A stretch of 64,000 nt of DNA from Candidatus Latescibacterota bacterium. GTDB lineage: Bacteria; Latescibacterota; UBA2968; GCA-2709665. A program made the translations under genes and the position numbers. Positions within the stretch are counted from its first letter, which is position 1; the number at the start of each line of letters is the position of its first letter. Of the stretch, positions 1,091 through 61,157 are shown piece after piece. The DNA lies in the NCBI GenBank assembly GCA_965198095.1, contig OZ240239.1:118641-182640 (forward strand), in the 5' to 3' direction. The notes beneath the pieces were generated by a model, which ran no database searches, was not told where the DNA came from, and was given only the letters and a program-made list of their open reading frames with translations.

Positions 1091-1912
1091 CTATGCGCCT
1101 CCTGGACCGACCATGGTGTAAGGTGCAGCTTCGTGGATATAGGTGAATTCGATATCGAGAAAGGATCTGTCGAGGTGGTTGTAGAGCGATTCGATCGAGG
1201 CGCACTCACTCACCCCGTGGTTGACGTGGACGAGCCCCATACCCGTGTCGAGGGCATAGCCAGCCATCTCCCACCAGCAGAACTCTGTTGCTACGAAGGC
1301 GTCCGCGCCGTAGCGATCTCTGGCCTCCACCAGACACTCCGGATTGCTGCCCCAGGCGCCGACGTTCGTCGCCAGGCGTTGCACAGGCATATCCGTGCTG
1401 CCCACGACGGCCACGTACTGCTGGCCTAAATCAGCGGTCTTCTCAGCGATCAGAATGCCGATCTCCCCAAGCGTCGTTCCTGCTGCCATCCGGCAGAGGG
1501 CAAAAATCGTTCCCGCCTCGTAGCGTTCGACCGTGTAGTCCGTCAGCCCAAGCGACTTCGGCCACCACTCGCATACGCCCAGCTCTGGATACCGGTCCCA
1601 GAGGTCGTGACACCTGATCGCCGTGATGCCGAGTTCATCCAGGAGCTCACGCTTGGCGTCAGAGCGTGTCCGGTCGAACGATTCCTCGTCGCGATCCTTC
1701 CTCTGCCAGATGATCGGCTCGTGAACGATCACGAGCTGACACTCTTGTTCAGCGGCTTTTCGGATCGCGCGCGTCGTGCCCATCCAGGTCACCGCCGCTT
1801 TCATCACCTCCCGATCGGCAGGCCCGTGTGTGATCCGATCGACCGTGGACTCCGGATCGACCCATCCCTTGCCCATCGCGTGGAGCTGTTGCAGAATCTC
1901 TTTCGCTGTCAA
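1091..1912 (-). CDS. NIF3-family (DUF34 / YbgI-like) dinuclear-metal protein
   Basis: 273 aa. N-terminal VIVHEP and C-terminal DAFVATE...VNHGVSE match the NIF3 metal-ligand pattern (HHP ... TGE ... GHxxSE). Confidence 0.7.
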   Translation of the reverse strand: MTAKEILQQLHAMGKGWVDPESTVDRITHGPADREVMKAAVTWMGTTRAIRKAAEQECQLVIVHEPIIWQRKDRDEESFDRTRSDAKRELLDELGITAIRCHDLWDRYPELGVCEWWPKSLGLTDYTVERYEAGTIFALCRMAAGTTLGEIGILIAEKTADLGQQYVAVVGSTDMPVQRLATNVGAWGSNPECLVEARDRYGADAFVATEFCWWEMAGYALDTGMGLVHVNHGVSECASIESLYNHLDRSFLDIEFTYIHEAAPYTMVGPGGA

Positions 1913-1954
1913 GGCAGAATCCTCGCCAAATGTTGTTGGACCAGCGTGGGACGC

Positions 1955-2947
1955 TCAAACCCAGACCGTTTCAAACAGTCGCATCAGATTCCCTCCCATG
2001 ATCTTCTTCGCGTCGGATTCCGAGTAACCCCTCTTCAGAATGGCACGCGTGACATTGGGAAATTCCGCCGATGACCGAATGCCCTCGGGATTGACGATCG
2101 GAAAATCTACCTTTGCGATCGGACCTTTCCGGCTTTTGCCGATCAGGAGCCAGTCGAAGAACGATTCGGGCCGGCCTTCCGTGAAATCGGTCCCGATCGA
2201 CACGTGATCGATCCCCACGACCTTCACCAGGTAACCGATCACATCCACGAAATCCTCGAGGGTAGACTTGGACCCCGCCGCCAGGAACGGGGGAAAGATG
2301 TTGGCCCCGACGAGTCCCCCCTTCTTGACCAGGGCGAGGAGCTGTTCATCCGTCTTGTTGCGGGGATGATCACACAGAGCGCGCGGATTGGCGTGGGTGA
2401 ACGCGACCGGTTGGGACGATGCCTCAATCGCCTCCATCGTCGTCTGATAACCGACGTGAGAGAGATCGATCAGCAGACCGAGCCGGTTCATCTCTTCGAT
2501 CACCTCCAGACCGAATCGGCTCAGTCCCACATCGGTCCGCTCCAGACACCCGTCCCCCACGTAGTTTCGCTCCATATACGTAAGCTGAATCACGCGCACG
2601 CCGAGCGTCTTGAACGTGGAGAGCAGACGCGAGTCGTGTTCGATCGGCGCGGTATCCTGAAAGCCGAAGATGATACCGACCTTTCCCGCCGACTTGGCCG
2701 CTCTGATGTCGTCCGTGGTCCTCACCGGCATGATCAGGGAGCCGTGGGCCTCGAACATCTCGTTCCATCTCTCGATCTTCTCCACGGTCTCCTGGAAATT
2801 TTCGTGCACCGCGACCGTCGCGTTGATCGCCGTCAGCCCTCCCTGGACGAGAGAACGGAATACCGGTTCACCCCATCGGCTGACCTGCAATCCGTCGATG
2901 ATAATCGAGGCCTCGTGCAAACCCGATGCCCGATCTTCCGCCATCAC
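1955..2947 (-). CDS. Membrane (renal-type) dipeptidase, peptidase family M19
   Basis: 330 aa with IIDG...LIDLSHVG...FTHANPRAL.DHPRNKTDEQL...GGLVG...SIGTDFTEG...IMGGNLMRLF, the typical M19 strand-end motifs. The first His-x-Asp is replaced by DGLQ. Confidence 0.8.
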   Translation of the reverse strand: MMAEDRASGLHEASIIIDGLQVSRWGEPVFRSLVQGGLTAINATVAVHENFQETVEKIERWNEMFEAHGSLIMPVRTTDDIRAAKSAGKVGIIFGFQDTAPIEHDSRLLSTFKTLGVRVIQLTYMERNYVGDGCLERTDVGLSRFGLEVIEEMNRLGLLIDLSHVGYQTTMEAIEASSQPVAFTHANPRALCDHPRNKTDEQLLALVKKGGLVGANIFPPFLAAGSKSTLEDFVDVIGYLVKVVGIDHVSIGTDFTEGRPESFFDWLLIGKSRKGPIAKVDFPIVNPEGIRSSAEFPNVTRAILKRGYSESDAKKIMGGNLMRLFETVWV

Positions 2948-2969
2948 GCCCCACCTTCGGTGACGTCAG

Positions 2970-4091
2970 CTACTTTCGGACGGACACGCTTTCAAGCTTT
3001 GCTTTGTCCAGCTCGACCCCGATGCCTGGCCCTTCGGCCGGCACACTCGCAAATCCATCCCTGACACGCAGAGGCTCACGGGTGATGTCTGCGGCGAGCC
3101 ATCCGTCCGAGCCAAGCGGAAAATCGCCGCCAATCACATTCCAGGTTGCGGCGTAGAAGTGAGCGGCCGTCGCGGCACCCACGCTCGTGGAAGGCTGTCC
3201 TCCAGCATACAGAGGAATGCCTGCCGCATCCGCGATGGCGGCGATCTTTCGAGCCGTGTAGATACCGCCAATCTTCGCCAACTTGATGTCGATGATGGAT
3301 GCCGACTTCTGCTTTACCAGGTCCGTCACCGCGTGGATCGAATTCGCACTCTCGTCTGCCATAATCGGCACCGAGAGCGCCTCTGAGAGACGGGCCATAC
3401 CGTCCAGATCCCAGATGGCCAAGGGTTGCTCCACGAACTCCAGGCCGTAAGGCTCGACCATACGCTTCAGCCTCGAAAGGGCCTCGCTGTATCGCATTCC
3501 TGCGTTTCCATCCACGCGAAACGCGACATCGGGACCCAGGGCCTCTCTCACGGCTGCCGTGTTTCGGACATCGGTCTCCGCATCGGGCGCCCCGATCTTG
3601 CACTTCAGAAGGAAATAGCCTCGATCGGCCTGTCGTTTGGCTTCATCCGCCATCTCGCTTGCCGGTTTCATCCCGATCGACCAGACACAGGAAATCTTGT
3701 CCCGGAAGCACCCCCCAAGCAGGTTGTAGAGCGGCACGTCGAGTGCTCGGGCAGCCAGGTCGTAGACGGCGTCGCTCACCGAGGTCCGGGCGTAGCTGCC
3801 CCCGTTCACCGCTCGCTCCATGTCCTGGTTCAGCTTTTCGATGTCGAAAGGGCTGCGCCCCAGGATCAGCGGCGTGTAAACGTTGCGGATCAGCGACAGG
3901 ATCGTGTCCTGCGTCTCACCGCAGCCCTGAAAGCACGGGATCGGCTGTGTCTCTCCAAGCCCGATCGTTCCGTCATCCGCCGTGACGCGCACGAGGACGT
4001 TCTCCTGCACCTCCAGCGTCCCCGTGGCGATCACCACAGGGATCTTGTAGGGGATGTCGATCGCAATCGCTTCGATCTTCGCGATCTTCAT
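2970..4091 (-). CDS. Enolase-superfamily enzyme, muconate-lactonizing subgroup (dipeptide epimerase or cycloisomerase-like)
   Basis: 373 aa with KCKIG (KxK), FRVDGN, FVEQP, IMADES and IDIKLAKIGG, the MLE-subgroup ligand and base pattern. Lies directly upstream of the M19 dipeptidase. Confidence 0.8.
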   Translation of the reverse strand: MKIAKIEAIAIDIPYKIPVVIATGTLEVQENVLVRVTADDGTIGLGETQPIPCFQGCGETQDTILSLIRNVYTPLILGRSPFDIEKLNQDMERAVNGGSYARTSVSDAVYDLAARALDVPLYNLLGGCFRDKISCVWSIGMKPASEMADEAKRQADRGYFLLKCKIGAPDAETDVRNTAAVREALGPDVAFRVDGNAGMRYSEALSRLKRMVEPYGLEFVEQPLAIWDLDGMARLSEALSVPIMADESANSIHAVTDLVKQKSASIIDIKLAKIGGIYTARKIAAIADAAGIPLYAGGQPSTSVGAATAAHFYAATWNVIGGDFPLGSDGWLAADITREPLRVRDGFASVPAEGPGIGVELDKAKLESVSVRK

Positions 4092-19538: not shown

Positions 19539-19639
19539 TTCGCCAGCAGGAGCTGGCTCCTACCTTATGAACGGCTTGTGAATATTACCTGATTCCAAAC
19601 GCCGGTAAATCCGGTAGGAGCCGCCTCCCGGCGGCGAAC
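19539..19639. repeat. REPIN (inverted REP doublet), stems GCCAGC/GCTGGC and GCCGCC/GGCGGC
   Basis: TTCGCCAGCAGGAGCTGGCTCCTACC ...46 nt... CCGGTAGGAGCCGCCTCCCGGCGGCGAAC. Same unit as the array at 42353-42967. Confidence 0.85.
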
Positions 19640-33258: not shown

Positions 33259-33403
33259 GGGTCTTCCGGTGCTGCCGCGTCTTCCGTGAACCTTGAATTC
33301 CCTTCGTAAAGCTACGGAAAAGTGGGAAAAAGTAAAGCCTTCCAGGGGTGGTTCTCCAAACGGAATCGGCATTGGGATGGCATACACACACGTCGTCATC
33401 CGC

Positions 33404-34238
33404 GGCTTCGCCAACAGAGTTGGCGATTGGATTGGCGCACCCTAAGTCGCCGTCTGTGGCTTCGCCAACAGAGTTGGCCATAGGATTGGCACATCTTAAA
33501 TCGCAATCTGTGGCTTCGCCAACAGAGTTGGCGATTGGATTCGTGCACCCTAAATCGCAATCTGTGGCTTCGCCAACAGAGTTGGCTCCTACCGGATTTG
33601 GGACGTTATGACATCGGTGAATCCAATAGGCCCAATAATCCGGTAGGAGCCGTCTCCCGACGGCGAACCATCTGATCGCAGTGTGGTGCCTCTGCTGAAC
33701 CTATGGGTGGCGATTGGATTCGTGCACCCTACGTCGCCGTCTGTGGCTTCGCCAACAGAGTTGGCTCCTACCGGATTCGGGACGTTTTGATATCGGTGAA
33801 TTCAATTCACCGGAAAATACGGTAGGAGCCGTCTCCCGACGGCGAACCATCTGATCGCGGTGTGGTGCCTCTGCTGAACCTATGGGTGGCGATTGGATTG
33901 GCGCACCCTAAGTCGCCGTCCATGGCTTCGCCAACAGAGTTGGCAATTGGATTGGCGCACCCTAAGTCGCCGTCCATGGCTTCGCCAACAGAGTTGGCTC
34001 CTACCGGATTCGGGACGTTTTGATATCGGTGAATTCAATTCACCGGAAAATACGGTAGGAGCCGTCTCCCGACGGCGAACCATCTGATCGCGGTGTGCGC
34101 CTCTGCTGAACCTATGGGTGGCCATAGGATTGGCGCACCCTAAATCGCAATCTGTGGCTTCGCCAACAGAGTTGGCCATGGGATTGGCGCACCCTAAATC
34201 GCAATCTGTGGCTTCGCCAACAGAGTTGGCTCCTACCG
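33404..34238. repeat. Hierarchical repeat array: 9 copies of a 54-nt sub-repeat interleaved with 3.5 REPINs (stems GCCAAC/GTTGGC and GCCGTC/GACGGC)
   Basis: TTCGCCAACAGAGTTGGC occurs at 33407, 33461, 33515, 33569, 33748, 33927, 33981, 34159 and 34213. Full 100-nt REPINs are at 33569-33668, 33748-33847 and 33981-34080. A half REPIN is at 34213-34238. Confidence 0.9.
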
Positions 34239-34341
34239 GATTTGTGGCGTTATGACATTGGCGCTACGGAGCGCAAAATACGTGCCGCCAGCAGCTCGGC
34301 TGCCCGCGGCGTTGCGCGCTTCTTCGTGTCACTCCGCGATA

Positions 34342-41654: not shown

Positions 41655-41805
41655 CAAGCCCGGCAAATCCGGTAGGAGCCTTACCTTCGCCAGCAGGAGC
41701 TGGCTCCTACCTTATGAACGGCTTGTGAGTATTACCTGATTGCAAGCCCGGTGAATCCGGTAGGAGCCGCCTCCCGGCGGCGATCCATTCACGCCGATAC
41801 TCGCC
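41655..41805. repeat. REPIN unit preceded by a truncated half unit, flanking the RAYT 3' side
   Basis: CAAGCCCGGCAAATCCGGTAGGAGCC is joined directly to TTACCTTCGCCAGCAGGAGCTGGCTCCTACC ... CCGGTAGGAGCCGCCTCCCGGCGGCGA. Relative to array units, 37 nt carrying one hairpin are missing at a GCC microhomology. Confidence 0.85.
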
Positions 41806-41888
41806 TTGCTTGATCTTACCAATCCGGGAAAAGACACGAGAACGGCCAATCTTCTGGGGTTGCAACATATCTTTTTCTCACCGGATTT

Positions 41889-42323
41889 TCATGGATGTAT
41901 CCGATTTTCATGGATGTATCCGAGATGTCGAGCAAACGCCTCTTTGTTACGAAGCTTATGATCATAGAACCCGCGCTGCCAGAACCTTCCCGTCCTGCAT
42001 TGTAGTCTGTTGATTCCTCTAGCTGTATGGCTTCCGAATGAAGCCATCACGCTGGAAAGATCCTGATCCTCTCCCAAGGCCACGATCAAATGCAAGTGAT
42101 CAGGCATCAGGACGTATCCTTCACATCTGAGACGCTCATTTTCATGAAGCCAGCGCAAACACCGAACGATGAGCTCCGGCACTTCAGATTCCTCTTTCGG
42201 ATTCATTGGGTCGCGAACCAGTGGACCTGTAGTATCGTCCACGCACTTTGTTATGGAGTAGATGGATCCGGGCAAGGAATTACGCCATTTCCTCAGAGCC
42301 GATTGATGGAACCCTCTTTCCAT
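41889..42323 (-). mobile_element. REP-associated tyrosine transposase (RAYT / TnpA_REP, IS200/IS605-type Y1 HUH family) with a frameshifted 3' end
   Basis: 144 aa. HUH motif YVLMPDHLHLIV and RFWQRGFYDH. The catalytic-Tyr motif GYIHEN is followed by a premature stop. Removing one copy of the 19-bp duplication (41884-41921) extends the frame to TAA at 41816, giving ...YIHENPVRKRYVATPEDWPFSCLFPDW. Visibly lower GC than the neighbouring genes. Confidence 0.85.
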
Positions 42324-42352: not shown

Positions 42353-42967
42353 CTTACCTTCGCCAGCAGGAGCTGGCTCCTACCTGATGAACGGCCTGTG
42401 AGTATTGCCTGATTGCAAGCCCGGTGAATCCGGTAGGAGCCGCCTCCCGGCGGCGAACACTTCACCTCGATCCTCGCCTTACCTTCGCCAGCAGGAGCTG
42501 GCTCCTACCTTTTGAACGGCTTGTGAGTATTGCCTGATTGCAAGCCCGGTAAATCCGGTAAGAGCCGCCTCCCGGCGGCGAACACTTCACCTCGATCCTC
42601 GCCTTACCTTCGCCAGCAGGAGCTGGCTCCTACCTCATGAACGGCTTGTGAGTATTACCTGATTTTTCAAACCCGGTAAATCCGGTAGGAGCCGCCTCCC
42701 GGCGGCGAACACTTCACCTTGATCCTCGCCTTACCTTCGCCAGCAGGAGCTGGCTCCTACCTCATGAACAGCTTGTGAGTATTACCTGATTTCAAACCCG
42801 GTAAATCCGGTAAGAGCCGCCTCCCGGCGGCGAACACTTCACCTCGATCCTCGCCTTACCTTCGCCAGCAGGAGCTGGCTCCTACCTCATGAACAGCTTG
42901 TGAGTATTACCTGATTGCAAGCCCGGTAAATCCGGTAGGAGCCGCCTCCCGGCGGCGAACACTTCAC
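42353..42967. repeat. Tandem array of five REPIN units (period 125-127 nt)
   Basis: Units start at 42353, 42478, 42603, 42730 and 42855. Each unit is TTCGCCAGCAGGAGCTGGCTCCTACC + 47-nt spacer + GGTA(G/A)GAGCCGCCTCCCGGCGGCGAAC + linker. The array starts 29 nt upstream of the RAYT ATG. Confidence 0.95.
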
Positions 42968-43186
42968 TTCGCAGAAAGCAAGTATTGGGTGTGCCGTTTT
43001 GTCGTCAAAAGCCGATCGGAGACTAAGTTGTTGAATTTCACGCACCTGAAGCGAGTCTCGTCGCGGGTGTGGATCGATCTGCAAAAACCGGTCTGGGAAG
43101 ATAGGTAGGTAGGGCTTGAACGCTAAAACGTTCTTGGAGGAAGGAGACAGGATCGGTCGGCTGGCGCGCCCACTCTTGCCTCAAGG

Positions 43187-44408: not shown

Positions 44409-46340
44409 CTACGAAGCACTCACCCACGTCAGAAAGGGTGAGGCGCCGCGATTTCCCCACGCATAGAAAGGGATCGCCGTCACCGGCGCGGCGGTCCCAC
44501 CCTCCCCGCGAAGGACAACGGTCTGGCCCAGGAGGCCTTCCTCCAGGTCGGTTTCGAACCCGGGCAGTTCCCCCACAGGCGCGTAGAGCCCCTCCCCTTG
44601 TCTTGAACGCGCCCCTGTCCCAACACAGATCTCCCACAGGTCGAGACCGGGATTGTCCGCCCCTTCGAAGCAGTAGACGAGGGGCCCCCGCATCAAGGCC
44701 AGTCTGCGTCGCAGGACCTTCACTCGGGGATCCGCCTGTACGCCGACGACCGGCATCGGCAGGTCCAGAATCACGCGGTCTCCCGGGCTCCACTCTCTGT
44801 GGATTCGGCAGTAGGATCCAGGTTCGACCCCACTGACAGCTGTACCGTTGACTTCAACCTTTGGGTTCGAACACCAACCGGGGATGCGCAGGTTCAGATC
44901 GAAGCTCGCGGGTTTCTGGGAAGAAACCTCGAGCTCTACGAGGCCCTCCCACGGATACTGCGTCTTTTGCGAAAGGGCGATCTCCGTACCATCCGGCAGG
45001 TGCCAATCTACGCGGCTGTTGTCGTAGAGGTGGACCCAGAAGCCACTTTCGGACGTGCTATAGATATAGCCGGGAACCGACGCGATCGTACAAAGCACGT
45101 TCGGGGGACAACAGCTGGGCGACAGAGACGCCCAGGTCGTTCTCGGAGGATGATCCCCGAGTGAAGCCAGGGGCACGAGGTAGGAGAAAGTGGTGTGGTC
45201 CAGCGAGACACCCGCCAGGATCCCGTTGTAGAGAATCCGCTCGAAAAGATCGGCATACACCGCCTCACCCGTCACGGCGAGCATCCGCCAGTTCCAGTAG
45301 GCGTTGCCGATCGTCGCGCAGGTCTCCATCCCGGTCGACCCGGTCCAGCCCCATACCCCCTGGGACAGGTCGAAGGCCTCTTCAACTGCCACTTCGGCTT
45401 CCCCGCGTTTGACCGCGATCGATCCAACAATATGCATCTTCCTCTTGGTGACGTCGTTCCAGATCGCGTCCAGCTTGTCCAGGTAGGCCTTATTTCCGGT
45501 TTCCGCGAAGGAGTCCGCGCCGCCGCACATCAGATAGGTCTGGCGAACGAGGTGTGCGGAACGACGGACGCCTACATTCGACCCGATCGCGACGCTCGGA
45601 CCGATTACGGGCGGCTGTCTGAGCAGAGGCGTCAGGAAATGCTCGGCGCCGCGCAGGTAGCGTTCATCGCCGGTCGAACGATACAACTCTACGAGCGCCA
45701 TCTCTATGGCGGGGTGCCCCGCGAACTCCTCGCCTCCGAATTTCGCGCAGACCCGGTCCGCAACGCCCATCGCGCATTCCAGGAATTTATCTTCACCGGT
45801 CGCGCGATGGTGGGCGATGGCCGTCTGGATCAGGTGGCCCGGAGTTGCGAGCCCATACGAGAGCTCGAAATTCTCGCCATAATAGATGTTGAAAAAATCT
45901 TCATTCTGATGTGCCGCGACGAAACCGGCCGCAAGGTCGTTGACCAGACCGCGGATCTCATCATCCTCACCCGACTGAAGCACGAACGCGCACGCTTCCA
46001 GCCACTTCGTCGCGTTCGCGCGCCATGTGTAGGACAGTCCGAGTTTGTTCTGGCCTCTATAGTTCTTGTCCAGAATCTCGAGGGCGGCCCCAATTTCCGG
46101 ACCGTCCGTAGACTGGGAGAATGTCCGGAACGGGCTGATCTGATCGTCCCTGTCGAGCCAGGAGAGGAAGGCCGGAATGCCCGCCCTGCGGCTGGCCTCC
46201 ATTCGCGGCCGCCAGAATCCCGCCTCCATCGTAACGGCCTGAATCGGGACCGGTCTTAGAATGGCGTGGGGGCTCTGAACGGTGGAAACGACGCCCGCCT
46301 CGTTCCAAGCCGGGAGGGTCTTACCTTCCTTGGTACTCAC
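44409..46340 (-). CDS. Glycoside hydrolase family 127 (beta-L-arabinofuranosidase-like, DUF1680)
   Basis: 643 aa with METCATIG (Glu-x-Cys) and SPSCCPPNV (Cys-Cys), matching the GH127 Zn and nucleophile motifs. Confidence 0.8.
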   Translation of the reverse strand: MSTKEGKTLPAWNEAGVVSTVQSPHAILRPVPIQAVTMEAGFWRPRMEASRRAGIPAFLSWLDRDDQISPFRTFSQSTDGPEIGAALEILDKNYRGQNKLGLSYTWRANATKWLEACAFVLQSGEDDEIRGLVNDLAAGFVAAHQNEDFFNIYYGENFELSYGLATPGHLIQTAIAHHRATGEDKFLECAMGVADRVCAKFGGEEFAGHPAIEMALVELYRSTGDERYLRGAEHFLTPLLRQPPVIGPSVAIGSNVGVRRSAHLVRQTYLMCGGADSFAETGNKAYLDKLDAIWNDVTKRKMHIVGSIAVKRGEAEVAVEEAFDLSQGVWGWTGSTGMETCATIGNAYWNWRMLAVTGEAVYADLFERILYNGILAGVSLDHTTFSYLVPLASLGDHPPRTTWASLSPSCCPPNVLCTIASVPGYIYSTSESGFWVHLYDNSRVDWHLPDGTEIALSQKTQYPWEGLVELEVSSQKPASFDLNLRIPGWCSNPKVEVNGTAVSGVEPGSYCRIHREWSPGDRVILDLPMPVVGVQADPRVKVLRRRLALMRGPLVYCFEGADNPGLDLWEICVGTGARSRQGEGLYAPVGELPGFETDLEEGLLGQTVVLRGEGGTAAPVTAIPFYAWGNRGASPFLTWVSAS

Positions 46341-46358
46341 TGGGTGACCTCCCCGACG

Positions 46359-47240
46359 TTATACCGGCATTGTGCGTTTGGTGTGGGCCCGCCCGATCTT
46401 GGCAGGCACTTCTCCCGCAGGCCCACAGGAGCCGATCATCAGGCCCTCGTCGATCATTTCAACCACGGTGTCCGGGAATACAAGATCGAGGAAAAAGACG
46501 TGCGCCTCCTGAAGGGCCGCCTTCACACGCTGGCGGGCCTGCGAGACCGCTTCGGGATAAGGAGGGTCGTGAGCGTCGGGATAACCGAACGACATCGCCA
46601 TGTCGCCGGCGCCCCACTCCCCACAGATGATGCCAGGCACCTTCGCAATCGACTCTGCGTTTTCCAGGGCACGTCTGTTTTCGATCTTGATTCCGAGCAT
46701 GATCTCGCCCACGGGATTCAGCGGCCAGACATCGGCCCGCTTCAAGTATTCCTGGACAGGAAGGCCCCACACTTCCGACGCGGATGCCTGCCCCTTATGA
46801 CCCCTGCGACCGGGATCCAGACCCTGTCCTACACCGAGCTGCTGGAAGGAGTAACGGCAGGATTCGACGAAGGCCTTGACGGCCTCCGGCGTTTCGGCAT
46901 GGGGCAGCGCGACGCCGTGGACCCCCTGCGCGAGGACCTGTTTGATCATCCAGGCGTTCGCCCGGACCACGGCTTCGCTCGTGCCGTCCGTCGGAATGGT
47001 CACGGACACGGCCGGCGTCCGGTGCCCGCTCCGGGTCGGACCGCCATCCACCAGGCCACGCATGAACTCGCCGATGGCGTGGACATCGAACGGATCGTGT
47101 TCCGTCTCGATCCTGATGTAGTCGGCCCACGTACCGGCCATCTCCCGGCCGGCTTCGTAAGAAACCTCCTGTGGATCGATATAGTAAATCGGCTGCCCCT
47201 GCTCGAGCAGTTCGATCGCCCTGTTGATCCGTTTCGGCAT
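46359..47240 (-). CDS. HpcH/HpaI aldolase / citrate-lyase-beta family
   Basis: 293 aa with DYIRIETEHDPFD and the (beta/alpha)8 aldolase pattern. Confidence 0.65.
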   Translation of the reverse strand: MPKRINRAIELLEQGQPIYYIDPQEVSYEAGREMAGTWADYIRIETEHDPFDVHAIGEFMRGLVDGGPTRSGHRTPAVSVTIPTDGTSEAVVRANAWMIKQVLAQGVHGVALPHAETPEAVKAFVESCRYSFQQLGVGQGLDPGRRGHKGQASASEVWGLPVQEYLKRADVWPLNPVGEIMLGIKIENRRALENAESIAKVPGIICGEWGAGDMAMSFGYPDAHDPPYPEAVSQARQRVKAALQEAHVFFLDLVFPDTVVEMIDEGLMIGSCGPAGEVPAKIGRAHTKRTMPV

Positions 47241-61084: not shown

Positions 61085-61157
61085 TCGCCGCCGGGAGGCG
61101 GCTCCTACCGGATCAATGAGTGCGATGTATCTGGTAGGAGCCAACTCCCGTTGGCGA
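61085..61157. repeat. Short-spacer REPIN with mixed stems (GCCGCC/GGCGGC and GCCAAC/GTTGGC)
   Basis: TCGCCGCCGGGAGGCGGCTCCTACC ...23 nt... GGTAGGAGCCAACTCCCGTTGGCGA. Confidence 0.85.

Follow-up and report, generated by a model that had tools for sequence, protein, structure and literature searches.

A 19-bp tandem duplication frameshifts a REP-associated tyrosine transposase and probably creates a recent null allele in a Latescibacterota-related bacterium

The window described here, a stretch of DNA of 64,000 nucleotides (64 kb), comes from a bacterium related to a Candidatus Latescibacterota MAG and contains one chromosomal copy of a gene for a REP-associated tyrosine transposase (RAYT). RAYT is a monomeric HUH/Y1 single-strand DNA nuclease-ligase, and no other domesticated transposase that sustains a population of short mobile repeats in bacterial chromosomes has been studied as thoroughly as that of RAYT/REPIN systems. 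In the window the reading frame of this gene is interrupted by a short tandem duplication, and REP doublets lie on both sides of the gene. The features of the locus are as follows.

41667-41784, no strand assigned: one REP doublet (41686-41711 and 41759-41784) and a partial REP (41667-41680), 3' of RAYT
41816-41884, minus strand: 3' end of RAYT, now out of frame, encoding PVRKRYVATPEDWPFSCLFPDW*, the same sequence as in intact alleles
41884-41921, no strand assigned: perfect 19-bp tandem duplication, 2 x GATTTTCATGGATGTATCC, from the sequence, Tandem Repeats Finder and a repeat search
41889-42323, minus strand: frameshifted RAYT (TnpAREP) ORF of 144 aa, from ORF translation, Pfam and NCBIfam
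42353-42971, no strand assigned: about five tandem 125-bp units, each a REP doublet (REPIN/BIME-like), 5' of RAYT, from repeat search and folding

The RAYT ORF of 144 aa ends in ...GYIHENRIHP* with a TGA stop at 41889-41891, and all coordinates and translations of the preliminary description, this end included, proved accurate. Removal of one copy of the 19-mer gives a protein of 162 aa that ends in GYIHENPVRKRYVATPEDWPFSCLFPDW* with a TAA at 41816-41818; this repair, which had been proposed from the sequence of the window, corresponds to a real allele in four related contigs (L006, L009, L010, and L011). The HUH motif, H76-L-H78, is encoded at 42090-42098, and the catalytic Tyr136 and Asn140 are encoded at 41916-41918 and 41904-41906, so the motifs lie upstream of the frameshift, as had been claimed. 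Tyr136 and Asn140 are translated from the copy at 41903-41921, and the frame shifts where this copy meets the other one.

The earlier assignment of the gene to the RAYT family is borne out by profile, sequence, and structure comparisons. The protein matches Pfam Y1_Tnp with 33 bits against a cut-off of 23, and the repaired 162-aa protein matches the NCBIfam equivalog REP_Tyr_transpos (cut-off 80 bits) with 115 bits over profile positions 4-146 of 146. The best sequence match in the PDB is E. coli TnpAREP in complex with a REP hairpin, 4ER8 (1.7e-11), and the same entry is the top Foldseek match in the PDB (4er8_A, E 1.1e-9, TM 0.66) of an AF2 model of RAYT with a pLDDT of 87. H76 and H78 align to H59 and H61 of 4ER8, and Y136 and N140 to Y115 and N119; H76, H78, Y136, N140, and P141 are invariant in an alignment of 26 sequences. 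By homology and predicted fold, the gene is a RAYT. An IS200/IS605 insertion sequence was considered and rejected: the NCBIfam model transpos_IS200 scores 21 bits against a cut-off of 55, there is no neighbouring tnpB, there are no IS ends, and RAYT is single-copy and syntenic. The gene (41816-42323) has a GC content of 48.8% and a GC3 of 0.51, compared with a window mean of 61% GC and a GC3 of 0.73-0.86 in neighbouring host genes, and despite its low GC content it is syntenic across species. Gene callers left the ORF unrecorded in four public assemblies that hold the intact gene.

Each 125-bp unit upstream of RAYT consists of two inverted REPs, 47 nt apart, and each REP combines GGTAG-GA with a GC-rich stem of 6 bp and a loop of 4 nt and folds at -7.5 to -8.4 kcal/mol. 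Within a doublet, the stems of the two REPs are distinguished by compensatory changes (GCCGCC/GGCGGC versus GCCAGC/GCTGGC), and both fold as predicted. The doublet on the 3' side of the gene is in direct orientation relative to the 5' units. The REP core, GGTAGGAGC, occurs 22 times in the 64-kb window, where 0.2 would be expected, and these cores are spread over four intergenic sites near 19.6, 33.6-34.2, 41.7-43.0, and 61.1 kb. The array between Fe-ADH and RAYT is a copy-number-variable tandem repeat, and the positions of REP cores give about three to five 125-bp units by strain in L006-L011, some of them with mutated REP cores. The REP clusters away from RAYT lie at 33400-34240, 19556-19638, and 61101-61141. 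The array at 33.4-34.2 kb belongs to a second REP subfamily with the GGTAGGAGC core and compensating stems GCCAAC/GTTGGC and GCCGTC/GACGGC, and it is interleaved with 54-bp sub-repeats that bear a hairpin without GTAG.

The duplication itself is read directly from the sequence. As first described, GATTTTCATGGATGTATCC is present twice, back to back, at 41884-41902 and 41903-41921, and on the plus strand the surroundings read ...CTCACCG[GATTTTCATGGATGTATCC][GATTTTCATGGATGTATCC]GAGATG... Tandem Repeats Finder reports 41884-41923 with a period of 19, 2.1 copies, and 100% matches, and a second repeat search recovers the identical pair. On the coding strand the unit is GGATACATCCATGAAAATC, that is, the codons for G-Y-I-H-E-N plus one extra base. 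A 2-bp microhomology, GA at 41922-41923, directly follows the second copy and equals the first bases of the unit, so that three registers are possible for the duplication (41884, 41885, and 41886). The chance expectation for such a 19-bp duplication is 64000 x 4^-19, or about 2e-7, and an exhaustive scan of the 64-kb window for other perfect tandem duplications with a unit of at least 10 bp found none. A hairpin that spans the unit (5-bp stem CGGAT/ATCCG) was considered as the cause of the duplication and is unsupported, since its folding energy is no better than that of shuffled sequence (z = +0.4).

Relatives of the locus were found through the protein of the neighbouring cyclase, which is identical in many assemblies, and nine contigs of the same species were obtained in this way, with flanking genes 97.7-100% identical. 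The intact allele is present in L006, L009, L010, and L011, where the RAYT region is identical to that of the window at 532/532 nt except for a 19-bp gap, the 19-mer occurs once, and the intact ORF encodes exactly the predicted 162-aa protein. A search with the repaired protein returned two full-length orthologues of 162 aa with 80% and 77% amino acid identity, both with a single copy of the 19-mer. The 80% orthologue lies in the complete MAG OZ252100.1 of another species of Candidatus Latescibacterota and is syntenic, the gene order GH127 - Fe-ADH - RAYT - cyclase - 3HCDH being shared with the window; the order from Fe-ADH to 3HCDH is found in the sister strains as well. The 77% orthologue lies on TARA ocean contigs that are too short for synteny to be judged. 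The 19-mer is thus single-copy in 6/6 other sequences of the gene (L006, L009, L010, L011, L001, and L003). The comparison with orthologues that had been recommended with the first description therefore gives one copy in four same-species alleles and in two orthologues from other lineages, which indicates that the ancestral state is one copy and that the duplication is private to the genome of the window. Further searches for a second two-copy allele gave no additional case: metagenome contigs scanned with a protein pattern yielded no relatives, an exact DNA pattern that covers both the one-copy and the two-copy alleles had no match in the collection scanned, and a scan of genome representatives returned the other-species MAG OZ252100.1 only. 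For three products of the window, those of the 144-aa ORF, Fe-ADH, and GH127, exact look-ups in a protein collection gave no match. The intact 162-aa product is likewise absent from that collection, though its DNA is present in four contigs, and the absence of the 144-aa product is therefore uninformative.

RAYT carries no substitution relative to the intact alleles, while the divergence of neighbouring genes among these genomes is 0-2.3% (cyclase 0-0.13%, right flank 0.2-0.5%, and Fe-ADH 0.7-2.3%). The duplication is judged to be very recent, since outside it the gene matches the intact alleles of the sister strains at every position and so has undergone no later change. The two-copy state is read from one sequence, that of the window itself, and an artefact of assembly, polishing, or sequencing, in which the organism has one copy and the second 19-mer arose during consensus building, has to be weighed here. 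The two-copy allele is found in the window only, with one copy in 6/6 other sequences, and the strain of the window is absent from the collections searched, so that there is a single witness for two copies; in addition, the related public contigs are metagenome assemblies, some of low coverage (e.g., ctg571717_3x_l), and the source of the window may be similar. The duplicated unit is, however, a complex sequence, neither a homopolymer nor a short repeat, and a duplication absent from all co-occurring strains cannot arise by merging them. In an alignment of about 11 kb with L016, the closest strain (on the same contig as L006), the window has three indels, of 2 bp and 1 bp in REP regions and the 19-bp duplication, which is the only one in coding sequence and thus makes general assembly noise unlikely. 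The flanking genes have 0 gaps against up to seven contigs, and the window is densely filled with long ORFs that are free of breaks, every long ORF being intact. We therefore regard an artefact as unlikely, with enough left in its favour to keep some weight. The preliminary description had offered three options for the gene, namely fresh inactivation, phase variation, and mis-assembly. The first gains support from the lack of any other difference in 532 bp and from the lone coding indel, and mis-assembly fits the otherwise indel-free neighbourhood poorly and stays among the rivals at the weight just given.

Paired 1-bp gaps in GH127 against L015 were considered as possible sequencing errors in the window and rejected, being compensating alignment gaps in a divergent segment that are absent against the closer L016. 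GH127 (44409-47240, with HpcH) is only 85-90% identical to most same-species contigs but 90.9% to OZ252100.1, the other-species MAG. HpcH shares 96.8% identity with this MAG, other genes 80-89%. These values suggest that lineages have recombined and made the left flank a mosaic, one boundary of which lies close to the REP array.

Two further kinds of disrupted allele are found in the same population. In L007 and L013, which come from two independent data sets, RAYT and all but one REP unit are absent. The remaining unit is a hybrid with the left boundary of the upstream array and the right boundary of the downstream doublet, and the junction is as expected for recombination between direct repeats, with the 3' doublet at 41667-41784 as the recombination partner in both deletion alleles. 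An ancestral empty site in L007 and L013 is ruled out by the hybrid REP unit and by the presence of RAYT at the same syntenic position in another species. In L008, the RAYT allele is slightly divergent and is split at a CTAG site by a DDE_3 insertion sequence of 1.6 kb. This element, at 1790-3421 of the contig, encodes a DDE_3 transposase of 292 aa and has terminal inverted repeats of about 30 bp, and the RAYT allele that it interrupts has 9 substitutions, several of which are residues of the other-species orthologues. Taken together, the alleles indicate at least three independent routes to a disabled RAYT in one population, namely duplication frameshift, deletion between REP units, and IS insertion. 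Multiple null alleles fit the known dispensability and patchy loss of RAYTs.

Since 19 is not a multiple of 3, the reading frame is lost straight after Y136-x-x-x-N140. Four new codons (RIHP) follow Asn140 before the stop that limits the product to 144 aa, and the product lacks both the last part of the helix that bears the Tyr and the conserved tail of 22 residues, PVRK...DWPFS...W. The 22 codons of the tail have dN/dS values of 0.09-0.12 between the orthologues and the window species and of 0 between the two other orthologues, with a whole-gene value of about 0.15, which indicates purifying selection on the lost segment. N-P is kept in all 25 homologues recovered, nearly all of which continue with a DWPFS-type tail; RAYTs that end at ..HENR.. 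without the NPV tail, the case named beforehand as speaking against a frameshift, number 0/25. In the AF2 model, a helix at residues 127-143 bears Y136 and N140, and residues 144-162 are confidently modelled as the tail. In E. coli TnpAREP, the equivalent helix contributes Y115, N119, and H123 to the active or metal site (PMC3479197).

A real duplication with a 144-aa product that is still an active, possibly deregulated, nuclease would also be compatible with some of these observations. The HUH motif, Tyr136, and Asn140 are all upstream of the shift, the 144-aa protein scores 87 bits over positions 4-131 of 146 of REP_Tyr_transpos and so remains above the NCBIfam cut-off, and the E. coli TnpAREP delta-152 variant, from which residues 153-165 of an autoinhibitory extension are removed, has higher activity (PMC3479197). 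The E. coli cut, however, hits a distal extension that the window RAYT does not have, the alignment of the intact protein to 4ER8 ending at chain residue 138. The truncation in the window equals a cut of E. coli TnpAREP after N119, by which the rest of helix alpha-D, the H123 position, and DWPFS are gone, and the segment lost is the one under strong purifying selection and modelled with high confidence as part of the fold. Continued activity of the short protein is consequently held to be quite improbable, and most likely the 144-aa product would be non-functional or unstable. A programmed ribosomal frameshift that rescues the tail was rejected as well. A +1 shift would be needed in ...CGG ATA CAT CCA TGA A..., in which inspection finds no slippery site; tRNA-Pro on CCA cannot re-pair on CAU, there is no Shine-Dalgarno-like stimulator upstream, and even if a shift occurred, six residues would be added inside the catalytic helix. 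The frameshifted gene is most likely a newborn pseudogene.

The explanation that we favour, with good though not full confidence, is that a recent duplication by slippage or template switching at the 2-bp microhomology made a null allele of RAYT as a first step of its loss. A 19-bp stretch over the G-Y-I-H-E-N codons would have been duplicated head to tail in the genome of the window alone, replication slippage or template switching at the GA microhomology being a plausible route, and the frameshift would remove the tail and leave a null gene. Reversion is possible in principle by precise loss of one repeat copy. The event is most likely an ordinary knock-out of a dispensable domesticated transposase.

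The same repeat could also be seen as a phase-variation device, in which slipped-strand mispairing adds or removes the 19-bp copy and so toggles RAYT, and with it REP/REPIN mobilisation, and which is kept as bet-hedging. Within the species there are both on and off alleles that differ in nothing else. Perfect direct repeats that abut one another are inherently liable to lose one copy precisely through RecA-independent slippage, which makes reversion to the intact allele mechanistically easy. Classical contingency loci are multi-copy short tracts, conserved across strains, with varying copy number; here, the four same-species alleles and the two other-lineage orthologues are all one-copy, with no repeat tract in relatives. 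Only a 2-bp microhomology and no significant hairpin are available to drive recurrent duplication, and the other null alleles, a deletion and an IS insertion, are irreversible, which speaks for simple loss and against a switch. That altered C-termini may regulate RAYT activity was a speculation of the authors who solved the E. coli structure (PMC3479197). The phase-variable option of the preliminary description thus draws on general repeat instability only, and we consider it highly improbable. A broader version, in which the duplication is one state of a reversible RAYT switch and the population may be under active selection for RAYT silencing, reached by three routes, is a speculative suggestion to which we give little credence.

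How, and how often, RAYT is lost bears on whether the RAYT/REPIN partnership is beneficial. The locus offers a metagenomic snapshot in which four allelic states of RAYT coexist in a little-studied, Latescibacterota-related lineage. Annotations should call the gene a pseudogene or a frameshifted RAYT, not a short transposase. If RAYT silencing were under selection, the population would be a natural system in which the loss of the replicase from a REPIN population could be followed as it happens. The RAYT/REP system is known already, as are its structure and its evolutionary loss, and a single loss-of-function duplication is in itself an ordinary event of a known kind; what is new is the lineage, the regular 125-bp tandem array of REPINs at RAYT, and the population snapshot with four allelic states.

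The closest known system is that of E. coli TnpAREP/RAYT, which is said to be the subject of work by Nunvar in 2010 and by Ton-Hoang and Messing in 2012. The window RAYT shares with E. coli TnpAREP (4ER8) the HUH/Y1 fold, the HUH motif, the Y-x-x-x-N-P motif, and the DWPFS segment, as well as a single chromosomal copy at a conserved position. Both genes lie between REP/BIME-type doublets that have a 5' GTAG and a hairpin (PMC3479197). The two proteins are about 23% identical, and the window RAYT has a Lys at the position of the metal ligand H123. It lacks the C-terminal autoinhibitory extension of about 25 aa with E161 (Glu in the active site), the intact protein ending about 3 residues past the position aligned to E. 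coli 138, and the 162-aa orthologues are without this extension as well. Further differences from the E. coli system are the Latescibacterota-like host, the regular 125-bp tandem array of REP doublets, and the frameshifted copy. The IS200/IS605 TnpA proteins (Y1; IS608 and ISDra2), which account for ranks 2-30 of the structure matches, have the same fold and catalytic motifs, but the window RAYT falls below the IS200 model cut-off, is single-copy and syntenic, and has neither tnpB nor IS ends. In slipped-strand phase variation, a direct repeat in coding sequence likewise shifts the frame and can be lost precisely (review PMC11868660), whereas here the repeat, private to one genome, consists of only two copies of a long unit (19 nt), with no tract in relatives. 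With respect to RAYT loss and REPIN decay, cases in Pseudomonas, Stenotrophomonas, Neisseria, and E. coli have reportedly been treated by Bertels and Rainey, by Park et al. in 2021, and in the RAREFAN preprint. Loss of RAYT followed by decay of REPINs has been described in other bacteria (10.1101/2022.05.22.493013). Published cases share with the present locus a patchy presence and absence among close relatives, and here intact, frameshifted, deleted, and IS-disrupted alleles are found in one species-level population. The published losses are mostly clade-level absences, whereas the window would represent a first mutational step, in a gene otherwise identical to functional alleles.
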